Of a DNA stretch of 64,000 bases, positions 136-60,378 are shown piece by piece. The notes beneath the pieces were generated by a model. It was not told the DNA's origin, did not search any database, and was given only the letters and a program-made list of their open reading frames with translations. A program made the translations under genes and the position numbers. The first letter of the stretch is position 1. Every line of letters begins with the position of its first letter. The DNA is from Bacteroidales bacterium (GTDB lineage Bacteria; Bacteroidota; Bacteroidia; Bacteroidales; Azobacteroidaceae): assembly GCA_031553835.1 (NCBI GenBank), contig JAVBKX010000009.1, positions 37,300-101,299 on the forward strand. Direction: 5' to 3'.

Positions 136-248
136 TAATATAAATATGTTAAAGACAATGCAACTAAATATAAAGGTACAAAGGCCCAACGTTTTTGTAT
201 TAAATTTTCTTTGTGTTTTCGTGTCTTTTGTTTATAAATTATAGATAT

Positions 249-1694
249 ATGAGATTAAGCAGGTTAATCGCAAGTTTAAATATTTCAATTTCTGTTCCCG
301 ACATTGAAATAAAAGGAGTGGACTCCGATTCAAGGAAAATCCAACCCGGATTTTTGTTTGTTGCTGTTGCCGGAACACAATCCGACGGACATGCTTATAT
401 TGACAAGGCAATTGAAAACGGAGCTGTTGCTGTGGTTTGCCAACAAATACCGGAAGCCCCCCACTCTACCACTATTTTTATTCAGGTTGCAGACAGTGCC
501 AAAGCGCTTGGAATAATTGCTTCGGAATGGAACGACAATCCTTCCCGCCAATTGATTTTGATTGGCGTAACCGGAACCAATGGGAAAACAACCATTGCTA
601 CCTTATTATATAATATCTTTCAAAAATTAGGATACAAAAGCGGACTTATTTCTACTGTTTGCAATTATGTTGGTTCAGAATATATTCCGGCAACGCATAC
701 TACGCCCGATTCCATTGCTTTGAATCAATTGTTGGCACAAATGGCAGATGCCGGTTGTGAATATGCTTTTATGGAAGTCAGTTCGCATGCCGTAGATCAA
801 CAGCGAATCAGCGGTCTGCAATTTAAGGGCGGTATTTTTACCAACCTGACACGCGATCATTTGGATTATCATAAAACATTCGAAGCTTATCGCGATGCTA
901 AAAAGGGATTTTTCGACGCATTACCAAAAGAAGCCTTCGCTCTTACCAATGTCGATGATAAAAACGGAATGTTTATGCTGCAAAATACAGGAGCTAAACA
1001 ATTTACATATTCTTTGCAAACGCTGGCCGATTTCAAAGGGAAAGTCCTGGAATCGCATTTCGACGGAACATTGATGACAATCAACGACCGGGAAGTCGCT
1101 ACCCGTTTTGTAGGACGATTTAATGCCTATAATCTGCTGGCTGTTTATGGCGCTTCTGTTTTATTGGAACAATCTCCGGAAGATATTTTGGTTATTTTGA
1201 GTTCGTTAACCTCCGTTTCCGGACGCTTTCAGACATTACGTTCTCCCGAAGGATATACGGCCATTATCGATTACGCCCACACGCCCGATGCGCTTACCAA
1301 CGTATTGAATGCGATTCATGGCGTATTGGAAGGAGAAGGAAAAGTAATCACAGTAGTCGGTTGCGGTGGAAACCGTGATAAAGGCAAACGTCCTATCATG
1401 GCAAAAGAAGCGGTAAAACTCAGTGATCAGGTTATTTTGACTTCCGATAATCCCCGCTTCGAAGAGCCGCAGGATATTATCAACGACATGGTCGCCGGAT
1501 TAGACATTATTGAAAAGAAAAAAGCATTGTCTATCGTTGACCGTCGCGAAGCCATCAAAACGGCATGTATGCTGGCGCAAAAAGGAGATGTAGTGTTGAT
1601 TGCCGGAAAGGGACACGAAGATTATCAGGAAATCAAAGGTGTAAAACATCATTTTGATGATAAAGAAATTGTACAGGAAATTTTTTTCGGATAA
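249..1694 (+). CDS. murE: UDP-N-acetylmuramoyl-L-alanyl-D-glutamate--2,6-diaminopimelate ligase
   Basis: ORF 213..1694 trimmed to the first ATG at 249 ([10 protein letters not shown]). Mur-ligase P-loop [10 protein letters not shown] and DNPR motif ([11 protein letters not shown]) typical of DAP-adding MurE; dcw context. Confidence 0.93.
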
Positions 1695-1708
1695 TACCAA
1701 AAACAGAA

Positions 1709-2545
1709 ATGATTATGGAATCAAACGTTATCAAACATATTGAAATGAAAGGTATCTTTAATCAATATTCCTTGCAATGGGATTTGAATGAAGATGTTAA
1801 TATTCTTGTTGGTATAAATGGTTGTGGAAAAACAACTATCATGCAAAGCATTAATGCTTTGCTTTCCAAAAATTATTCCTTCCTCAATAACAAAAACTCT
1901 GCGCGAAATATCGGGATATATGCAACTTTGAAAAATGGAGAAACTATTTTCTACGACAATACTGTCAAACATGAACCAAAAGAAATCATCAATCACGCAT
2001 TGATTACTACTTTTGATGTTCCTCTAAAGGACAAAACTAAAATAAAACAATCTGAATCTCCTTTAGATAAAGAATTAAAAGATTTATGGTACACATTGGG
2101 TACAGAAGAGCCTTCTTTTTTCAATTACAGACTAAAAACTACCCATTATCCGGAAGAAGCAGATAAAATAAACGCAAGAATACGTCACTTTTTTGATATT
2201 ATTAATAATACTTTTTCAGAAACAAACAAAAAAATTGATATTGCTGTTAACAATGAAATAATTTTCAGAAAAGAGAAAAGCATCATTACTCTTACAAGTT
2301 TATCTTCTGGCGAAAAACAATTTCTATTGATTCTTTTATCAGTATTCTTAATGGAAGAAAGGCCGTATATCCTTTTAATGGATGAACCGGAAATATCGCT
2401 GCATATTAGTTGGCAACAACAATTAATTGATACAATACGAAAATTAAATCCAAACTGTCAGCTTATCATTGCAACACATTCTCCTTCTATTTTTGGAGAT
2501 GGATGGGGAGATAAGATATTTTTTATGGAAGACCTGATTAGTTAA
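1709..2545 (+). CDS. Small ABC-type ATPase (AAA_21/AAA_15-like), AriA-like partner of the downstream DUF4435 protein
   Basis: 278 aa. Walker A GINGCGKTT (aa 35-43), ABC signature LSSGEKQ (198-204), Walker B ILLMDEPE (221-228), H-loop ATHSP (254-258). 14 bp after the murE stop and 7 bp before the next ORF. Visibly AT-rich. Confidence 0.7.
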   Translation: MIMESNVIKHIEMKGIFNQYSLQWDLNEDVNILVGINGCGKTTIMQSINALLSKNYSFLNNKNSARNIGIYATLKNGETIFYDNTVKHEPKEIINHALITTFDVPLKDKTKIKQSESPLDKELKDLWYTLGTEEPSFFNYRLKTTHYPEEADKINARIRHFFDIINNTFSETNKKIDIAVNNEIIFRKEKSIITLTSLSSGEKQFLLILLSVFLMEERPYILLMDEPEISLHISWQQQLIDTIRKLNPNCQLIIATHSPSIFGDGWGDKIFFMEDLIS

Positions 2546-2552
2546 GAGAATA

Positions 2553-3500
2553 ATGAGATTTCAAAGTAAAGATACTTTCTATAAAGATCTTGCTTCCCGC
2601 TATGCGAATGAAGCAAAAATGCTTCGTTGTACTGCTGCAATACATGTAGAAGCAACTTCTGATAAAATCTTTTGGGAGAAAATCTTTAAATATCTTTTGC
2701 CTGAAAAAAAATTCCATTTCATTGCATATACGCAAACCAAAGATAATAAGGAGGCTACAGGCTGTGCCATTTGTCTAAAATATAAAAAATTAGGATACTT
2801 ATCTGACAAATTTTTCATCTGTATCGACAGCGATTACCGGTATTTACTTGAAGAAAAGGGGATCGATGCAAAAAATTTTGTATTTCAAACATATACTTAT
2901 TCGATAGAAAATCATTGGTGTTATCCAGACAATATAAATAGTTTTTTTAACAAATGCGGTTTACAAAATACAAAATTTGATTTTAACCGATTCTTAATCG
3001 ATTATTCAGCAACTTTATATGAATTATTTTTGTATCATCTTTATTCATTGTCGGTTGGCGACAGATTATTTACAAAAGAACAATTTAGAGCTTTCCTGAA
3101 TATTTCCAACCCTTGCTCTGATTCTTCAAGAATGATTAACAAATTAAGGGATACAACCGCCTCTGAATTGGATCGATTAAAAGTATATTATAATAAAAAG
3201 ATACTCCTGAAAGATTTGGAAAATAAATATTATCAATTTGGACTTAAAAAGGAAAATGCCTATTTATATTTTCGAGGTCATAATGTATTTGAGCAAGTTA
3301 TTGTGAGGATTGCAGCTGAAGTAAAAGAAGAATTACAAAAAGAGCAACAAACTCAACGATTATCCAATACAGCAAAGAGAGATTACTATAATAGCAAAAA
3401 ACAAGAAAATTTCATCGCTTATTTTTCCGAAGATTTATGTTTTGACAAATACGAAGAAATAAAAAAAATAGAGAAAGACATTAAAAATCATTTCAAATAA
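2553..3500 (+). CDS. DUF4435-like TOPRIM-domain protein (AriB / OLD-nuclease-like)
   Basis: 315 aa. Ordered motifs HVEATSD (aa 31-37), ICIDSDYRY (89-97) and TYSIENH (115-121) match my recollection of the DUF4435/TOPRIM E..DxD..E pattern. Paired with an ABC ATPase; 14 bp before mraY. Confidence 0.62.
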   Translation: MRFQSKDTFYKDLASRYANEAKMLRCTAAIHVEATSDKIFWEKIFKYLLPEKKFHFIAYTQTKDNKEATGCAICLKYKKLGYLSDKFFICIDSDYRYLLEEKGIDAKNFVFQTYTYSIENHWCYPDNINSFFNKCGLQNTKFDFNRFLIDYSATLYELFLYHLYSLSVGDRLFTKEQFRAFLNISNPCSDSSRMINKLRDTTASELDRLKVYYNKKILLKDLENKYYQFGLKKENAYLYFRGHNVFEQVIVRIAAEVKEELQKEQQTQRLSNTAKRDYYNSKKQENFIAYFSEDLCFDKYEEIKKIEKDIKNHFK

Positions 3501-3514
3501 TATAATTTACAACC

Positions 3515-4774
3515 ATGCTATATTACCTTTTCAACTATCTTGATAAAATAGACTTTCCGGGCGCCGGGATGTTCCAATACATTTCATTCCGTTCGGCCAT
3601 GGCATTGATCTTTTCGTTATTCATTTCTACGCTTATCGGTAGAAAAATCATCGAAAAATTGCAAATGCTTCAAATTGGTGAGATTGTCCGCGACCTCGGA
3701 TTGGAAGGACAAATGAGTAAAAAAGGAACACCTACAATGGGCGGGATCATCATCATTATTTCTATTTTGATTCCGGTATTACTGTTTGCCAAATTGAGTA
3801 ATATCTATATTATCTTAATGATTATCACCACTGTATGGTTGGGAAGCATCGGCTTTTTGGATGATTATATCAAAGTATTCAAAAAAGATAAAGATGGATT
3901 GAGCGGAAAGTTTAAAATTGTGGGACAGGTCGGATTGGGACTGATCGTTGGATTGACATTATATCTGAGTCCGGATGTGATGATGCGCGAAAATACCGAA
4001 GTCGTCAACCACAACGGTGTAATTACGGAAGTGAAACACAGCCCGGCGGTCAAATCTACCAAAACCACCATTCCGTTTTTCAAAAATAATAATTTCGATT
4101 ACCGCAGCCTGGCTTCTTTTATGCCCAAATATCGTACAGCGGCTACCTGGATTATTTTCGTAATCGTTACGATTTTTATTGTAACAGCGGTATCTAACGG
4201 AGCCAATCTGACTGACGGATTAGACGGATTAGCGACAGGAAGCTCGGCCATCATCGGGGTCACATTAGCCGTTTTGGCATACGTTTCGAGTCACGTCGAA
4301 TACGCGGCCTACCTCAATATTATGTACATTCCGAAATGTGAGGAATTGGCCGTATTTGCCAGCGCATTTATCGGAGCTACAGTAGGTTTTCTTTGGTACA
4401 ATGCCTTTCCCGCACAGGTATTCATGGGCGATACCGGTTCATTAACCCTGGGAGGAATTATCGCCGTTTTTGCCATTATCATTCATAAAGAATTGTTGTT
4501 GCCCATTTTATGTGGTATTTTCTTTGTCGAAAGTTTATCGGTAATGATGCAGGTTTCTTATTTCAAATATACCAGGAAAAAAAACGGCACAGGAAAACGA
4601 ATTTTCAAAATGACGCCTTTGCACCATCATTTCCAAAAACCCGGAAATTCGGGAATTGAAGCCATTATTCAAAAACCGCTCCGGGCTATTCCGGAATCAA
4701 AAATAGTAATCCGGTTTTGGCTGATCGGTATCATTTTGGCGGTATTAACCATTGTAACATTAAAAATGAGATAA
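3515..4774 (+). CDS. mraY: Phospho-N-acetylmuramoyl-pentapeptide transferase
   Basis: 419-aa polytopic membrane protein with MraY motifs [10 protein letters not shown] and FMGDTGSL; dcw position. Confidence 0.93.
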
Positions 4775-4783
4775 TAGTTGCAT

Positions 4784-4841
4784 GTTACAAGTTACGAGTT
4801 ACATACAAGAGACTCGCAACTTGTAACTCGTAACTCGTAAC
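4784..4841. repeat. Heptamer-periodic inverted repeat (GTTACRA x3 ... TCGTAAC x3) in the mraY-murD spacer
   Basis: GTTACAAGTTACGAGTTAC (4784-4802) pairs with GTAACTCGTAACTCGTAAC (4823-4841), 18/19 complementary with a 20-nt loop. It ends 6 nt before the murD ATG. Confidence 0.8.
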
Positions 4842-4847
4842 TATAAT

Positions 4848-6185
4848 ATGAAACGAATCGTAATATTAGGAGGAGGAGAAAGCGGCTCCGGCGCTGCTGT
4901 ACTTGCTAAGAAACAAGGATTTGATGTCTTTGTTTCGGATAAATCTGTTATTCCCGTAAAATACAAAGAATTGCTTGCAAAATACAATATTGAATGGGAA
5001 GAAGGATTGCATTCGGAAGAAAAAATATTAAATGCAGATGAAGTGATAAAAAGCCCCGGAATCCCGGAGAAAGCGCCTATCGTGCAACAATTGAAAGCGT
5101 TAAATATTCCGGTTATTTCAGAAATTGAATTTGCCGGACGATATACCAAGGCTAAAACGATATGCATTACCGGAAGTAACGGCAAAACAACAACTACAAT
5201 GTTGACATTCCACATTTTGAAAAATGCAGGGTTAAATGTCGGCTTAGCCGGAAACGTCGGCGATAGTTTTGCCTTGCAAGTGGCTGAACAAAATTTTGAC
5301 TATTATGTTATCGAATTAAGCAGTTTCCAATTGGATGGCATGTACGATTTCAAAGCTGATATTGCCATTTTATTAAATATAACTCCCGATCATTTAGACC
5401 GGTACGATTACAAAATGCAGAATTATGTGGACTCTAAAATGCGTATTCTGCAAAACCAAACGGCAAAGGAAGCTTTTATTTATTGGAACGACGATCCGAT
5501 TGTTTCGGAAGAAATCCGTAAGCGAAACCCGTCGGTGACTTTATACCCTTTTTCAAAAGATAGAAAAGCAGGAGTAAAAGCTTATACTGAAAATACGCAA
5601 ATTATTATAAATACCTCTAACAACAACACATTCACAATGGAAGAAGATTTAGTAGCTTTAACGGGGATGCACAATCTGTACAACTCGTTGGCTGCAGGGA
5701 TAGCATCAAAACTGCTGGATATTAAAAATGAAGACATCAGAAGGTCGCTCAGCGACTTCAAAGGTGTGGAACACCGGCTGGAGAAGGTGGCGCGTGTACG
5801 GGGAGTCGAATATATCAACGACTCCAAGGCAACCAATGTCAACTCCTGCTGGTATGCGCTGCAAAGCATGCGAAGCCGCGTCGTCCTGATTTTAGGCGGA
5901 ACCGACAAAGGCAATGATTATTCGGAAATAGAAGCTTTGGTAAAAGAAAAATGCTCTGCTTTAATTTTCCTTGGAGTGGACAATTCAAAATTGCACGCTT
6001 TTTTTGATGGAAAAGTTCCTGTTGCCGTCGATGCACGTTCTATGGACGAAGCGGTAAAAAAAGCGTATGAACTCGCTCAATCGGGTGAAACGGTACTATT
6101 GTCGCCCTGTTGCGCCAGCTTCGATTTGTTCAAAAATTATGAAGATCGAGGAGAACAATTTAAACAATGTGTCAGAAGACTATAA
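4848..6185 (+). CDS. murD: UDP-N-acetylmuramoylalanine--D-glutamate ligase
   Basis: N-terminal Rossmann GGGESGSGAA and Mur-ligase P-loop ITGSNGKTTTT; dcw position. Confidence 0.92.
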   Translation: MKRIVILGGGESGSGAAVLAKKQGFDVFVSDKSVIPVKYKELLAKYNIEWEEGLHSEEKILNADEVIKSPGIPEKAPIVQQLKALNIPVISEIEFAGRYTKAKTICITGSNGKTTTTMLTFHILKNAGLNVGLAGNVGDSFALQVAEQNFDYYVIELSSFQLDGMYDFKADIAILLNITPDHLDRYDYKMQNYVDSKMRILQNQTAKEAFIYWNDDPIVSEEIRKRNPSVTLYPFSKDRKAGVKAYTENTQIIINTSNNNTFTMEEDLVALTGMHNLYNSLAAGIASKLLDIKNEDIRRSLSDFKGVEHRLEKVARVRGVEYINDSKATNVNSCWYALQSMRSRVVLILGGTDKGNDYSEIEALVKEKCSALIFLGVDNSKLHAFFDGKVPVAVDARSMDEAVKKAYELAQSGETVLLSPCCASFDLFKNYEDRGEQFKQCVRRL

Positions 6186-10906: not shown

Positions 10907-12325
10907 ATGGAACAAACAGGATTTATCGCAGCTATCGATTTGGGTTCATCCAAAATCGTTGCCATGGCAGGAAGAAAAAACCAGGAAGGAAAATTAGCCA
11001 TTCTATACAAAGAAGAAATAGAATCGGATACTTGCATCCGGCGCGGCCGTATTTATAACCTGGAAGAAACTCAACGTAAAATCAGTAGTTTAATATTAAA
11101 ACTGGAAAGCAAATTTCCTCAAAAATCCAGAATAGAAAAAATATATATCGGCATTGGAGGCCAATCGCTCCAAACCGAAATATGTACTGTATTAAGAAAT
11201 TTCACAGAAGAGGGAGGCATCATTTTGAACGAAGCAATCTTACAATCGATTCGGAAAGAATGTGAATCATACGAACGGGATTCGGAAATGCTCGACATTA
11301 TATCTGCCGAATACTTCCTGGATGAACAGGATGTCCCGGTAAAAGATCCGGTAGGACTCGCCTGCTCTTCTATCGAAGCCCAATTCAAATTGATTGTTAC
11401 CAAACCGGCTAAAAAATTCCTGGCCGATAGCCTGGAAAAAGCCAGGACTACTGTCGCCGGTTATGTGATCGGCCCCATGGCAACTGCCAATGCCGTATTG
11501 AATGATGAAGATAAAAAAAATGGCTGCGCTTTGGTCGAAATCGGAGCGGGAGTCACTTACCTCTCAATTTACAAACAAGGGACACTGAAAGAGTTGATCA
11601 CTATCCCAATGGGCGGAATTTCCATCACCAAAGATATTGCCAGCCTCAACATTTCGATGAAAGAGGCTGAAAATCTCAAAATAAAATATGGAACCGCTAT
11701 CGCCGACCCGGATGAAGGAAACAAGACGATCCCGGTGGTCAACCCTGAAAATAACGGACCGAAAGAAATTGAATTCAAACTGCTTGAACAAATTATTGAA
11801 GCAAGAATAAATGAAATCATAGCCAACGTACAGCAGCAGCTCCGGTTGTCGAAACATGAGAATGGCCTCAACGCCGGTATTATACTTACCGGAGGAGGTT
11901 CTCAATTGAATAAAATTGCTGCCGCTTTCCGAAATAAAATGAAGTACGATATTCGTTTGGCTGTACCCAAACATCAGCTATTTCAAAAAGCAGAAGAAGA
12001 ATACAATAATCCGGCTTATTCGGAAATGATCGGTATCTTATTGGCAGGTTCGGAAAATTGTGTGAAAGTGATAGAACCCGCTCCCACCCCACCCGTTACA
12101 ACTCCTTCGCCTGCTCCTGAGCAAGGTAGTTTGTTCCGAGACGACGAAGTAAAAATAGAACAACCGGCAGGAACAGGCAAAAAACAAGATGGCGACACAA
12201 AATCCGGAGGAGGACTCTTTTCCCGATTCAAAAGAGGTGTGAAAAATACAATGGATAGCGCTTCCAAATCCCTTTTTGATGAAGATTTGGATGGAAGAAA
12301 AAATGAAGAAAATACAGAAAAATAA
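10907..12325 (+). CDS. ftsA: Cell-division protein FtsA (actin-like ATPase)
   Basis: IAAIDLGSSKIV and GGGSQL motifs. Pro-rich/charged C-terminal tail with an amphipathic GGLFSRFKRGVKN segment; dcw position. Confidence 0.9.
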   Translation: MEQTGFIAAIDLGSSKIVAMAGRKNQEGKLAILYKEEIESDTCIRRGRIYNLEETQRKISSLILKLESKFPQKSRIEKIYIGIGGQSLQTEICTVLRNFTEEGGIILNEAILQSIRKECESYERDSEMLDIISAEYFLDEQDVPVKDPVGLACSSIEAQFKLIVTKPAKKFLADSLEKARTTVAGYVIGPMATANAVLNDEDKKNGCALVEIGAGVTYLSIYKQGTLKELITIPMGGISITKDIASLNISMKEAENLKIKYGTAIADPDEGNKTIPVVNPENNGPKEIEFKLLEQIIEARINEIIANVQQQLRLSKHENGLNAGIILTGGGSQLNKIAAAFRNKMKYDIRLAVPKHQLFQKAEEEYNNPAYSEMIGILLAGSENCVKVIEPAPTPPVTTPSPAPEQGSLFRDDEVKIEQPAGTGKKQDGDTKSGGGLFSRFKRGVKNTMDSASKSLFDEDLDGRKNEENTEK

Positions 12326-24205: not shown

Positions 24206-24673
24206 TTATTGTTGTTCAAAAAATTCAAATAAATATCTTTCATCGTATTGGATGTTGAATTTTTGTAAAAAATCCAAATATTCTTCTTTGAAATTATGCT
24301 TTTTGTGATGAATTGGTTGATTCAGTATGTAATTGATTACAACTTGTTGATGTGATTGCGAATAAGAAAATGCACCAAATCCTGTTTGCCATTGAAAATG
24401 AAAAGGTAAAAATTGTTGCTCATTGATAAACTTTGAAGATTTTGCTTTAATTATTTTTACTAAATCAGATACTGAAATTGCAGGATGAATTCCTACTAAT
24501 ATGTGCGTATGGTCTGGATTGCAATATATTGCCAAAGGTTTACATTTTTCAGAAGAAATAATGCCACAAATGTACTTTTCGATTCTTTCCCGAAAAGATT
24601 CGTTGATAAGATATTGACGATTGTGTACTGTAAAAACTATCTGTACACATAATTGTGAATAGGTATTGGCCAT
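24206..24673 (-). CDS. IS200/IS605-family Y1 (HUH) transposase, REP-associated (RAYT-like)
   Basis: ORF 24206..24814 trimmed to the ATG at 24673 (MANTYSQLCVQIVFTV), because the upstream extension translates REP sequence. HUH-type motif PDHTHIL and Tyr motif NYILNQ. Flanked by REP-like hairpins. Confidence 0.8.
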   Translation of the reverse strand: MANTYSQLCVQIVFTVHNRQYLINESFRERIEKYICGIISSEKCKPLAIYCNPDHTHILVGIHPAISVSDLVKIIKAKSSKFINEQQFLPFHFQWQTGFGAFSYSQSHQQVVINYILNQPIHHKKHNFKEEYLDFLQKFNIQYDERYLFEFFEQQ

Positions 24674-24718
24674 AATGATTCGGTTTTTGGTTAAAGTTGC
24701 ACAAATATAGATATTTTT

Positions 24719-24949
24719 CTTCTCCTGCGCTGCTATGGAGCTTATTTTTTGTAGACTCCTCTGTTTCCAGTGGTCAAAACCACTGGTTAATAAGGCGGTG
24801 TCACTCTGTGACAATTTGCAGTATAGTTATGTAATTGTTTTTGAAAAATAGCTACGTAGTAGCTTGGCCTCATTAATCAGTGATTTTAATCACTGGAAAG
24901 AGGATAGGTAGATGATATCTCTCCTCTAAAGTTGCGTAGCAACGTAGCT
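24719..24949. repeat. REP-like hairpin array (units C'-D'-A'-B') on the other side of the Y1 transposase
   Basis: Unit C' 24719-24743. Unit D' 24767-24813 (42/47 identical to D). Unit A' 24851-24900 (hairpin CAGTGAT..ATCACTG). Unit B' 24927-24949. Confidence 0.85.
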
Positions 24950-38015: not shown

Positions 38016-38596
38016 TGTTGTGTTTTCAGTAATTTTTTCCATTCGATTAATCCTATTATCGACATGATGCAATAAACTACAAATAGAATACTGCTTGCAT
38101 AAAGTTTTTGGTAAAAACACAGTCCGATAGAGAGAAAATCTGCAAAAATCCATACATACCAGTTTTCTACTATTTTGTGAGCTACCATCCAGGTTGCAGC
38201 AATGCTTAAGGCCGCAACGAAAGCATCGGGGCAGGGGACAGGAGAATCTGTAAAATTTTTTAATATGTAAGCAATAATGCCGGTTAATGCGATAGTAATT
38301 ACACTTAATATTATTATTGTTTTAGTATTTATATTGGTTGTTTTTATTTCTTTATTTTTTTTGTTTTTCAGAAATTTCCAACAATACAATCCATAAAATC
38401 CCATAAGCACATAATAAAAATTTAATCCCATTTGTGCATATATTTTGCTTTGAAAAAAGATGTAAACATAAAAGGAAGAACTGATAATTCCAACGATCCA
38501 CATGGTCCATTTTTGCTTGATTTCCAGCAAAATATAGATAAATGCCAGAACGACTCCGATGATTTCAATATAATTTTCCTGAATCCAGTTGCTCAT
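38012..38596 (-). CDS. PnuC-family transporter (probable thiamine-type PnuT, given the adjacent TPK)
   Basis: 194 aa, 6-7 TM segments, W-rich PnuC-like sequence. Its start overlaps the Fic stop as ATGA. Confidence 0.75.
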   Translation of the reverse strand: MSNWIQENYIEIIGVVLAFIYILLEIKQKWTMWIVGIISSSFYVYIFFQSKIYAQMGLNFYYVLMGFYGLYCWKFLKNKKNKEIKTTNINTKTIIILSVITIALTGIIAYILKNFTDSPVPCPDAFVAALSIAATWMVAHKIVENWYVWIFADFLSIGLCFYQKLYASSILFVVYCIMSIIGLIEWKKLLKTQQ

Positions 38597-39714
38597 TGTT
38601 TTATTGTGGGATTTACAGTTATAATTGGGTCGACTTTTGGGAATGTATGTTTTTCTGTTGCAAAAAGCTCGAATAATGGTTGATTGACATAGTAGTTATA
38701 CTTTCCAATCTTTTCTTTTTTCAAAAATCCTTTTATCGAAAGTTCATCGAGATATTTTGCCGCTGTAGGGCGGCTGATACTTAAATCCTGCATCATAAAA
38801 TCTATTTTAGTATATGGATGTTTAAATAGATTGTTTAGTAAATCCTGACTGTAAAAAGGAAATTGTTCGCGGATGTTGTGTTTATATTGTTGCATTAAAT
38901 TTTTTATATCCCGGATTAAACCGATTGTTTCTATTGAGATTTTTTCGATGCCATCCAGTATGAAAATTACCCATTCTTCCCATGTTTCATTTTCTCTAAT
39001 GGCTTGTAAATGCCGGTAGTATTCGGCTTTATTCCTTATAATATAGCGGCTTAAATATAAGACCGGAATTTCTAATAAATCGCTCAGAACCAAGTATAAG
39101 ATATTGATTACACGTCCTGTTCTTCCATTTCCATCATAAAATGGGTGGATGCTTTCAAATTGGAAGTGAATGATAGCCATTTTAATTAATGGGTCAAGGT
39201 CGGATAATGATTCGTCATTGATAAATGCCTCCAAGTTGGTCATCAGCTTTACAATTTCGTCATAATCCTGAGGTGGCATATAGACAGTTTCTCCTGTCAA
39301 TTGATTTTTGAGTGCTGTTCCCGGAAGTTTGCGGAATCCGGCATCATTTTTTTTCAGCTTTTCCTGAATTTTCAGAATATCTTTATTTGTCAGCATTTTT
39401 GTTTGTTTCACGATTTCAAAGCCACAGACAAGTGCTTCAACATAGGATGCAACTTCTTTCATGGCAGGACTTTTGAAATCATCTTCAAACAGTTGCGATT
39501 TGAACATTTCATCATGAGTTGTAATGATATTTTCAATGGCAGAGCTGTCTTTTGCTTCTTGAAGGGCAAGTGTATTGATTAATATGGCATGGTTGGGAAT
39601 TGTATCGGTAATTCCTTTTAATTCAGCGAGTCTTCTATGGGCTGTTGCAACTTTTTTGAGAATATTTTTTGTTTCAAAGTCGAAATCAAAAGGTAATAAT
39701 TTTAAATTTTCCAT
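38593..39714 (-). CDS. Fic-family protein (AMPylase-type active site, N-terminal inhibitory motif, C-terminal winged-helix)
   Basis: Canonical HPFYDGNGRTGR (HxFx(D/E)GNGRxxR). SSAIEN matches the (S/T)xxxE(G/N) inhibitory helix. C-terminus SRPTAAKYLDELSIKGFLKKEKIGKYNYY looks like a wHTH. Confidence 0.85.
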   Translation of the reverse strand: MENLKLLPFDFDFETKNILKKVATAHRRLAELKGITDTIPNHAILINTLALQEAKDSSAIENIITTHDEMFKSQLFEDDFKSPAMKEVASYVEALVCGFEIVKQTKMLTNKDILKIQEKLKKNDAGFRKLPGTALKNQLTGETVYMPPQDYDEIVKLMTNLEAFINDESLSDLDPLIKMAIIHFQFESIHPFYDGNGRTGRVINILYLVLSDLLEIPVLYLSRYIIRNKAEYYRHLQAIRENETWEEWVIFILDGIEKISIETIGLIRDIKNLMQQYKHNIREQFPFYSQDLLNNLFKHPYTKIDFMMQDLSISRPTAAKYLDELSIKGFLKKEKIGKYNYYVNQPLFELFATEKHTFPKVDPIITVNPTIKQ

Positions 39715-59028: not shown

Positions 59029-59056
59029 CTAAAAACTAAAAACTAAAAACTAAAAG
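59029..59056. repeat. Four tandem heptamers (CTAAAAA x3 + CTAAAAG)
   Basis: Read directly. The last unit overlaps the stop codon of the 59050..60378 gene. Confidence 0.8.
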
Positions 59057-60378
59057 TGCAGGGGTTGGGGTATTTCTTTAACATCGTCAAGCAGCCATTT
59101 CCATGCAGGAATGACACGAATATTTCGATCTTCAACAACAATTTCATCTTCTGTTTCGGCAGTGATGATTGATAATTTGTTGCAATTTGTTGTATTCGAT
59201 GCTTCTATTAATCCTGCAATTTCCCGGTTTCGAGTATCCAAATCATCTATTTGCCAGGCAACCTGGATAAGCTCTATAACTTCAGAATGGTCTGTCAAAA
59301 CGAAATCGCATTCTTTTTTCTCTTTGAAATAATATATTCCTTTTTGAAAAGAATATTTTCTCCGTAAATGGATGAATACAAGATTTTCCAACAAAATTCC
59401 GGCATCATCGCTATGTGGCGTCAATACGGCATTCCGTAATCCATTATCAATACAGTAATACTTTTTATTAGTATTGCTTTCTTTTATTAAAGAGAAATCG
59501 AATTTAGGCAGAGATAAAAGTAAATAAATAGCTTCTGTCTGATCTGCTAATTCATATAAAGTATTTTTCGCAACGCTAACTCCTTGGGATTTTAATTCGT
59601 TATAAATCTTGTTGATAGATGTGGGCTTGGTTATATTCAACATCATTCTCTTTATAAAATAGCGAACCGGGGATGAATTACGGATATCGTATCTTTCAAT
59701 TAAATCTTTGTAAAGCATTACAAAGAAATATTCTTGTAATATTTTTTCTCTATAAATGGCATCTCCTAAAACAATTTCGGGGAAAGCTCCAAATTTCAAG
59801 TATTCATAAAATGCATTAATTATTTTTGCCCGGGAGGAAGTGTTGTAGTAATTTGTATCAATGTCTTTGAAATGACAGTATTCGTCAAACGAAAGAGGAA
59901 ATTCTTCAAATTGTAAAGTTCGTCCCCGAAGAGATGTTGCGATTTCAGAAGAAAGCATACGGGAATTAGAACCTGTTAGAAATATTTGTTTGGAAACAGA
60001 GTCATAGACTCTTCTTACAAATTGTTCCCAGTTGGAAGTCATTTGTATTTCGTCAAAAAAGAAATACACCTCTGCCATTTTTTCGTTGGGATACAATTCT
60101 CTATACGCTTGCAATATTTCATCAAAATCTTCCGAAGAAAAAGATAGCCGTTCATCATCAAAATTAAGGAATAATATTTTTTCCCGCTCAATTCCTTCTG
60201 ATAACAGTTGATTGATTGCCAGTGAAAATAACGATGATTTTCCACATCGTCTGACGCCCGGAACTGTTATGATTTTTCCGGTATGCAATGGTAGCTGTAA
60301 ATTGCGCTGTATTACAGATGCAGGTAACGATTGTTGAAAATTGACAATTAATTCTTTTATCAATTCTTTCTTTTTCAT
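59050..60378 (-). CDS. AAA-type ATPase with DUF4143-like C-terminal domain
   Basis: 442 aa with Walker A GVRRCGKSS and Walker B FFFDEIQ; AAA_14/DUF4143 family pattern. Confidence 0.7.
   Translation of the reverse strand: MKKKELIKELIVNFQQSLPASVIQRNLQLPLHTGKIITVPGVRRCGKSSLFSLAINQLLSEGIEREKILFLNFDDERLSFSSEDFDEILQAYRELYPNEKMAEVYFFFDEIQMTSNWEQFVRRVYDSVSKQIFLTGSNSRMLSSEIATSLRGRTLQFEEFPLSFDEYCHFKDIDTNYYNTSSRAKIINAFYEYLKFGAFPEIVLGDAIYREKILQEYFFVMLYKDLIERYDIRNSSPVRYFIKRMMLNITKPTSINKIYNELKSQGVSVAKNTLYELADQTEAIYLLLSLPKFDFSLIKESNTNKKYYCIDNGLRNAVLTPHSDDAGILLENLVFIHLRRKYSFQKGIYYFKEKKECDFVLTDHSEVIELIQVAWQIDDLDTRNREIAGLIEASNTTNCNKLSIITAETEDEIVVEDRNIRVIPAWKWLLDDVKEIPQPLHF

Follow-up and report, generated by a model that had tools for sequence, protein, structure and literature searches.

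A pair of adjacent open reading frames (ORFs), ORF1 and ORF2, was found between murE and mraY in the division and cell wall (dcw) operon of a Bacteroidales bacterium of the family Azobacteroidaceae (assembly GCA_031553835.1, contig JAVBKX010000009.1, positions 37,300 to 101,299); this whole stretch of 64,000 nucleotides is referred to as the window. Comparisons of sequences and predicted structures support the assignment of ORF1 and ORF2 to the PARIS-type pairs of an ABC ATPase (AriA) and a DUF4435/TOPRIM nuclease (AriB), which form class 4 of the OLD family. The initial annotation of the window had proposed a PARIS-like pair from the sequence, and Pfam, PADLOC models, solved structures and fold matches all agreed with it. 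In the best explanation of the data, which we consider probable, the pair is a short-subtype PARIS abortive-infection module that an ancestral lineage of Dysgonomonadaceae fixed in its dcw operon and that owes its expression to read-through.

The published detection rule for PARIS asks for a score of at least 32 bits to AAA_15 or at least 27 bits to AAA_21, adjacent to a DUF4435 protein scoring at least 27 bits (Rousset et al. 2022, PMC9122126). All three Pfam families were matched at this locus. ORF1 scored 85.1 bits to AAA_15 and 78.3 bits to AAA_21, ORF2 scored 63.0 bits to DUF4435 (profile positions 5-237 of 238), and the two genes are 7 bp apart. Both proteins also matched the PADLOC models for AriA and AriB from end to end, where a match means an individual profile hidden Markov model (HMM) and not the system-level logic of PADLOC: ORF1 matched AriA PDLC04164 with an E-value of 1.7e-93 (profile positions 1-251 of 253) and ORF2 matched AriB PDLC04165 with an E-value of 3.6e-70 (positions 4-285 of 289). 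The pairs of dcw-resident relatives matched the same models equally well.

Analysis of ORF1 revealed the motifs GINGCGKTT (35-43), LSSGEKQ (198-204), ILLMDEPE (221-228) and ATHSP (255-259), with 158 amino acids from the Walker A lysine K41 to the signature serine S199; these and the motifs quoted for ORF2 in the initial annotation were all present in the translations. Residues G35-T43, S199-Q204, D225-E226 and H257 were invariant across 43 homologues. Among eight genomes carrying the pair at this position (carriers) that were compared, Walker A, the signature and THS of AriA were intact in all eight, and a Walker B pattern search gave no match in two of them, L011 and L172. The other catalytic motifs examined were likewise intact in all eight. 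The top sequence match of ORF1 among solved structures was E. coli AriA 8UX9 (E 7.6e-17), with the alignment confined to the two ATPase halves (ORF1 7-52 with AriA 5-50, ORF1 195-268 with AriA 363-434). The structure comparison called for earlier was carried out on AlphaFold2 models with Foldseek, and the ORF1 model (predicted local distance difference test score, pLDDT, 86.7) found PtuA and AriA chains as its best matches, with E-values of about 1e-12.

The two ATPase halves of ORF1 are joined by residues 53-194 (142 amino acids), which stand in place of residues 51-362 (312 amino acids) of E. coli AriA, a shortfall of about 170 amino acids in this region; in the model this region holds only three short helices (118-168). 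In E. coli AriA, the region made up of IS1, IS2 and the coiled-coil four-helix bundle provides the CC interface through which the hexamer forms, as well as the binding site for Ocr (PMC10802264, PMC11464382). Most of this coiled-coil/IS1/IS2 region is missing from ORF1, and sensing and assembly must therefore differ from those of E. coli PARIS. The suggestion of a distinct minimal subtype was borne out in that ORF1 has 278 amino acids against the 464 of E. coli AriA and lacks the coiled-coil region, but not as a novelty: the short AriA subtype is real, and PADLOC v2 already holds dedicated AriA/AriB models for it. The short-ATPase family is large, with 2,378 clusters found at E <1e-10; all of the 120 top-ranking ones had lengths of 261-292 amino acids. 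Its members come mostly from Bacteroidales (Dysgonomonadaceae, Tannerellaceae, Odoribacteraceae, Sanguibacteroides), and the short PARIS subtype is widespread in this order outside dcw. A literature search found no paper characterising the short AriA/AriB subtype.

ORF2 contains the motifs HVEATSD (31-37), ICIDSDYRY (89-97) and TYSIENH (115-121), and E33, D37, D92, D94 and E119 were invariant across 46 homologues. By order and spacing, we take these five residues as the equivalents of the acidic TOPRIM residues E26, D30, D88, E90 and E122 of E. coli AriB (PMC11464382). The significant fold matches of the ORF2 model (pLDDT 94) in the PDB were solely AriB chains (8UX9_A and 8V46_D), and the match to 8UX9_A covered the full length with an E-value of 7.2e-4, a probability of 1.00 and a template modelling (TM) score of 0.46. 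No family for ORF2 was found in PHROGs.

In E. coli PARIS, AriA and AriB form an AriA6:AriB3 complex, a phage trigger frees AriB, and tRNA cleavage leads to growth arrest. The window pair resembles E. coli B185 PARIS (Rousset 2022, Burman 2024, Deep 2024; PDB 8UX9, 8V45-8V49) in the order of its genes, ABC ATPase followed by DUF4435 TOPRIM protein, and in the order and spacing of the five invariant acidic residues. It differs in the length of AriA given above, in that the similarity of ORF2 to E. coli AriB shows through family models and fold and not in direct sequence searches, and in its location, as E. coli PARIS occupies a P4-satellite hotspot whereas the window pair is a vertically inherited resident of the dcw operon. 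The short models of PADLOC-DB v2 (PDLC04164, PDLC04165) represent the subtype of the window pair, but members outside the window clade are not in dcw. Septu/retron PtuA proteins (PDB 8EEA, 8SUX, 9N69 and others) were, alongside AriA, the nearest folds to ORF1 (TM 0.55-0.65), and PtuA and ORF1 belong to a common AAA_15/21 defence-ATPase clade. Membership in Septu was rejected because PtuA is partnered by the HNH nuclease PtuB and ORF1 by a DUF4435 protein, and because the best PtuA HMM reached E 1.7e-31 against 1.7e-93 for AriA. OLD (P2) and Gabija GajA, classes 1 and 2, likewise couple TOPRIM nuclease chemistry to an ABC ATPase, and they work through abortive infection (PMC11464382). In these classes a single protein chain carries both ATPase and TOPRIM, and its TOPRIM domain is Toprim_Old, not DUF4435; in the window, a stop codon and a 7-bp spacer divide ORF1 from ORF2, and the pair was not placed with them.

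The positions of the two ORFs and the spacers reported earlier were confirmed (Table 1). Downstream of mraY, up to 13564, follow murD, ftsW, murG, murC, ftsQ, ftsA and ftsZ, and a YqeY protein (Pfam) comes after the dcw array. The array had been described as canonical from ftsI to ftsZ; Pfam supported MurE, MraY, MurD, FtsW, MurG, MurC, FtsA and FtsZ, with a weak POTRA match for FtsQ, but of ftsI only the last ~130 nucleotides lie in the window. The MurE protein of the window is 65-76% identical to MurE of other Bacteroidales, and its start is ambiguous, as ATG 249 is possible instead of GTG 213. Public gene calls begin ORF1 at Met3 (276 amino acids), which is why an exact-sequence look-up of the 278-amino-acid ORF1 gave no match. 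An antisense ORF of 91 amino acids (1721..1996) was dismissed as lacking support. An assembly chimera was also dismissed, since many independent assemblies agree: the murE-pair-mraY arrangement was found in at least 10 of them (NCBI, JGI, ENA, Logan).

Scans for sigma-70 type promoters, the Bacteroides -33/-7 promoter, the -7 motif alone and terminators gave counts at chance level and no signal at the junctions, in agreement with the earlier remark that the tiny spacers leave no room for a promoter or terminator of the pair's own. Carrier spacers are mostly 2-15 bp, all genes are co-directional, and the sequence of the murE-ORF1 spacer varies among carriers and is not conserved. In carriers, ORF1 and ORF2 overlap by up to 4 bp or lie up to 9 bp apart, a spacing that suggests translational coupling of the two. 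As the essential genes from mraY to ftsZ lie downstream in the same direction, transcription must pass through or begin within the insert, and the pair is very probably co-transcribed with the dcw genes. An Rfam search of the whole window gave no match. The 73-bp mraY-murD spacer contains a hairpin (4784-4841) made up of three copies of the heptamer GTTAC(A/G)A and their complement, with 20-nucleotide arms that are 95% complementary. The window has no second hairpin of this kind (5 motif matches against 0.5 expected). Hairpins likewise occur in dcw spacers of L009, L014 and L039, and all of these may serve the processing or stability of mRNA, or may be elements resembling repetitive extragenic palindromes.

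Comparison of the murE-mraY junction, which the initial annotation had recommended, revealed that the junction is filled in many relatives and empty in the 80 Bacteroidales species listed below. All AriA homologues with at least 53% identity and a readable context (11 of 11) lay at this position, within the array mraZ-rsmH-ftsL-ftsI-murE-[pair]-mraY-murD-ftsW-murG-murC with similarly tiny spacers. The carriers are not near-identical strains, as MraY is 83-92% and MurE 71-80% identical among them. Homologues with at most 51% AriA identity sit elsewhere, namely in Sanguibacteroides and at 79 metagenome loci (human gut, rumen, other sources), and none of the metagenome loci in this identity range with readable flanks lay beside murE or mraY. 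An AriB match directly follows AriA at 71 of 80 metagenome loci, several of the remaining ones being short or cut contigs. None of the 80 Bacteroidales species representatives among the matches listed in a murE-centred scan carries the pair between murE and mraY, where the gap is ~10-470 bp (median 37 bp). The pair is not a core dcw component at this position across Bacteroidales, and its absence from dcw in the 80 listed species indicates that it is foreign to the ancestral dcw cluster. Three relatives (L012, L013 and L014) also have empty junctions with no remnant of the pair, and aligning the empty L012 spacer to the spacers between AriB and mraY in its sister genomes gave no deletion scar; such clean junctions imply that the pair was lost precisely or that an empty allele took its place. 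We infer the habitat of the carriers solely from the named relatives, which are termite-gut metagenome-assembled genomes (MAGs). Sequencing run SRR23967709 contained at least three species-level variants of the pair (L001, L008 and L010, with 100%, 68% and 63% AriA identity to the window), and therefore several carrier lineages coexist in one community.

Table 1. Features of the murE-mraY region in the window, loci with and without the pair, and other cargo in related dcw operons. Coordinates without a prefix in the first seven rows are positions in the window; L numbers denote the loci compared.
Feature	Coordinates	Strand	AriA identity to window	Description or position
murE	213..1694	+		UDP-MurNAc-tripeptide ligase, upstream flank; Pfam Mur_ligase, Mur_ligase_M, Mur_ligase_C, E down to 6.5e-53
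murE-ORF1 spacer	1695..1708	+		14 bp, read from sequence; 20 bp if ORF1 begins at Met3
ORF1	1709..2545	+		short AriA-like ABC ATPase, 278 amino acids; predicted sensor and inhibitor subunit
ORF1-ORF2 spacer	2546..2552	+		7 bp
ORF2	2553..3500	+		AriB-like DUF4435/TOPRIM nuclease, 315 amino acids; predicted effector
ORF2-mraY spacer	3501..3514	+		14 bp
mraY	3515..4774	+		downstream flank; Pfam Glycos_transf_4 and MraY_sig1
L001			100%	murE-pair-mraY
L002			81%	murE-pair-mraY
L007			68%	murE-pair-mraY
L009			63%	murE-pair-mraY
L011			59%	murE-pair-mraY
L172			58%	murE-pair-mraY
L173			60%	murE-pair-mraY
L174			53%	murE-pair-mraY
L255 (Ca. Symbiothrix MAG)			61%	murE-pair-mraY
L256			58%	murE-pair-mraY
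L092			76%	1.9-kb contig; mraY begins 10 bp past AriB stop
L012 empty murE-mraY junction	11401-11424			22-bp spacer, no pair remnant
L013 empty murE-mraY junction	5529-5540			10-bp spacer, no pair remnant
L014 empty murE-mraY junction	6033-6109			75-bp spacer, no pair remnant
DUF6364+PIN toxin-antitoxin-like pair	L002:3240-3895			murE-AriA junction, co-directional
thioredoxin-like/TPR protein, 292 amino acids	L009:7102-7980			co-directional
23S_rRNA_IVP protein	L009:12632-12892			murD-ftsW junction, co-directional
cytidine-deaminase-HATPase_c_4-wHTH protein	L009:15299-16795			after murG, co-directional
DUF7004 protein	L007:14899-15387			murG-murC junction, co-directional
YhcG/DUF1016 PDDEXK nuclease	L173:11125-12162			mraY-murD junction, co-directional; PADLOC candidate PDC-S02, E 1e-137
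co-directional deaminase protein homologous to that of L009, 45% identical	L014:7409-8920			mraY-murD junction

The GC content of the pair was measured as 30.0% for ORF1 and 29.1% for ORF2, against 41.4% for murE and 40.3% for mraY, so that the low-GC insert noted earlier was found again. The two ORFs rank second and third lowest among the 49 long ORFs of the window (mean 38.1 +/- 3.4%), and the pair lies below its flanks (29-36% against 39-43%) in the five genomes compared by whole-gene GC. The lowest GC of the window (28.8%) belongs to an IS200-like Y1 transposase at 24206-24814 on the minus strand (Pfam Y1_Tnp, E 3.6e-22). GC at codon positions 1 and 2 was lower in the pair than in the flanks in all eight carriers, the deficit of the pair falls mostly at these two positions, and its low GC therefore reflects amino-acid composition. 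GC at the third codon position follows that of the host: the pair has ~25 in the window, matches its neighbours in L011, and reaches ~40-48 in L173 and L174, which are hosts of higher GC. Because of the codon-position pattern and this tracking of the host, low GC is no sign of recent arrival here, and the argument from GC in the initial annotation is weak.

Comparison of the pair with its neighbours in the eight carriers revealed co-divergence. The AriA+AriB tree was broadly congruent with the dcw-protein tree, and pairwise Ari and dcw distances were correlated (Mantel r 0.76, p 0.0012). In the closest pair of carriers, L011 and L172, synonymous divergence (dS) of AriA (1.5) and AriB (1.0) matched that of MurE, MraY, MurD and FtsW (1.0-1.6), values so close to saturation that the comparison of ages is rough. 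The ratio of nonsynonymous to synonymous divergence (dN/dS) was 0.047 for AriA and 0.077 for AriB against 0.026-0.048 for the same four neighbours; the pair is under purifying selection as strong as that on its essential neighbours. AriA and AriB evolve ~1.5-2 times faster than the dcw proteins. In a neighbour-joining tree of FtsI+MurE+MraY, the insert-free L012 was sister to the carriers L011 and L172 with 100% bootstrap, and the carrier L173 grouped with the insert-free L013 and L014 with 82% bootstrap. Parsimony favours a single old insertion, after which the pair was passed on vertically and was precisely lost at least twice.

No direct or inverted repeats of the target-site duplication or att-like kind were found bracketing the pair. 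Residence in a mobile element or variable hotspot, which is typical of PARIS without defining it, was not seen either, as there are no flanking repeats or mobile-element genes. IMG/VR yielded no close relative of the pair (the best match was 34% identical and longer), GenBank phages gave no match, and matches among PLSDB plasmids had only 23-27% identity.

Two other histories have to be weighed against an old insertion. That a mobile defence cassette landed only lately in the dcw operon of the window genome is very improbable. A GC of 29-30% beside flanks of ~41% and the empty junction in the 80 other listed Bacteroidales species would fit such an arrival, but at least 10 further, diverged genomes have the junction filled (AriA identities from 53% to 81%), the pair co-diverges with the dcw genes and equals them in dS in L011/L172, its borders show no repeats, integrase or other mobile-element traces, the phage and plasmid collections searched hold no close relatives, and the GC deficit falls mainly at codon positions 1 and 2. 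The proposal of horizontal acquisition thus stood as to a foreign origin, given the absence from dcw in the 80 listed species, and failed as to a recent arrival, given the fixed position and the co-divergence. The other alternative concerns history and not function: filled and empty alleles may have spread by homologous recombination in the murE and mraY flanks. We give this a small chance, in view of the broadly congruent Ari and dcw trees with their Mantel r of 0.76 and the equal dS of the closest pair, L011/L172. In its favour are the patchiness within the clade (L012, L013 and L014 lack the pair), MurE identities that stray from the MraY/AriA ranking (MurE 71% but AriA 80% between the window and L002), and additional junction cargo that differs between genomes.

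As to function, by analogy with E. coli PARIS the short AriA-like ATPase would keep the AriB-like nuclease inactive until a phage-derived signal frees it; the freed nuclease would then cut tRNA or other RNA and halt translation, resulting in abortive infection. Because the coiled-coil sensor region is missing, the trigger cue and the architecture of the complex are probably unlike those of E. coli PARIS. The cassette, without a promoter of its own, would have entered the murE-mraY junction in the ancestor of a Dysgonomonadaceae group (the named relatives being termite-gut MAGs) and would since have been inherited vertically within the dcw operon, with clean loss in a few lineages. Its expression would most likely be constitutive, by read-through from the dcw promoter or promoters.

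Several points weigh against this reading. Although specific, the fold match between ORF2 and AriB is a loose one (TM 0.46, E 7e-4), and a sequence search of the PDB with ORF2, both as a single sequence and as a 46-sequence profile, found no AriB match. The mechanism of sensing and assembly in E. coli cannot simply be transferred to the short ATPase. On the historical side, dS near saturation makes the age comparison rough, and the trees were built by neighbour joining from three to four proteins. Vertical retention with dN/dS like that of essential genes is also atypical for defence, and the pair could have another role.

One such role would be domestication for housekeeping or surveillance: after its long residence the pair would cooperate with the machinery of cell wall and division, for example by arresting translation upon a disturbance of peptidoglycan synthesis or dcw transcription, and generic phage defence would have ceased to be its chief task. 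The initial annotation had reasoned that finding the pair here in all relatives with host-like composition would argue for an ancestral housekeeping role; many relatives have it, but not all, and its composition is partly host-like. The position is kept across family-level divergence, the dN/dS of 0.05-0.08 resembles that of MurE, MurD and FtsW, the pair appears obligatorily coupled to the transcription of an essential operon, and the canonical trigger-binding coiled coil is missing. We nevertheless consider domestication quite unlikely, because the clean losses in L012 and L013/L014, nested among carriers, mark the pair as dispensable, the family is common in other Bacteroidales outside dcw in unrelated neighbourhoods, AriA and AriB evolve faster than the dcw proteins by the factor given above, and the other cargo of related dcw operons is defence- or toxin-antitoxin-like and not envelope-related. 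It is also unlikely, although slightly less so, that the pair is a selfish addiction module with AriB as toxin and AriA as antitoxin, which would persist mainly since damage to it or to the surrounding operon is harmful and would bring little or no anti-phage benefit. Long-term strong purifying selection acts on both proteins, all catalytic residues included, clean losses happened, and phage defence is the established function of the characterised family members (PMC9122126, PMC11464382). These observations stand against the label 'AriA antitoxin' used by the PDB depositors, the DUF6364+PIN toxin-antitoxin-like pair that L002 also has at its murE-mraY junction, and the guard that a site between essential genes offers against outward-extending deletions.

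Analysis of related dcw operons revealed further cargo at several junctions (Table 1), which suggests a lineage-specific tolerance for cargo within the operon. Gaps above 450 bp were found only three times across all murE-to-murC junctions of the 80 species listed, and one of the three is in L014, a relative of the carriers. Several junctions may accept co-directional defence or toxin-antitoxin cassettes that have no promoter and depend on read-through, those seen being the PARIS-like pair, DUF6364+PIN, the YhcG/PDC-S02 nuclease and the deaminase-HATPase_c_4 protein at two junctions. A more speculative proposal, to which we assign a low probability, is that the dcw operon of this Dysgonomonadaceae lineage is a long-lived intra-operon defence island in which the minimal pair became quasi-core through functional coupling to dcw transcription. 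In place of an Ocr-like protein, such a quasi-core pair might detect that a phage has shut off host transcription or that cell-wall synthesis is being interfered with. The core defence hotspots of P. aeruginosa and the P2/P4 hotspots resemble this situation in that defence and toxin-antitoxin cargo recurs between conserved genes. The known hotspots flanked by core genes are intergenic and island-like, with fast turnover and promoters of their own, whereas the dcw cargo is promoter-less, co-directional and within an essential operon, and the PARIS pair has been kept over family-level divergence. A literature search for defence genes inside dcw or for PARIS in Bacteroidales found nothing relevant.

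Defence systems are usually seen as fast-turnover cargo of mobile islands, and here a PARIS-type pair has stayed in an essential operon that ranks among the most conserved. The general picture of PARIS is unchanged by this finding, which is a variant in an unusual fixed context and not a new kind of system. If confirmed, it would provide a natural case of a potentially toxic nuclease system that is tolerated in, and expressed from, an essential operon, and a lineage whose dcw junctions repeatedly host accessory cargo. A compact AriA without the known sensing domain could, likewise if confirmed, help to establish what PARIS minimally requires and which alternative triggers it may have.

Outside the dcw region, two further genes of the window lie in lower-GC stretches and are possible accessory or defence-related genes: a Fic/DOC protein with Fic_N, Fic and SoFic-like_C domains (38593-39714, minus strand) and an AAA_14+DUF4143 ATPase (59050-60378, minus strand).

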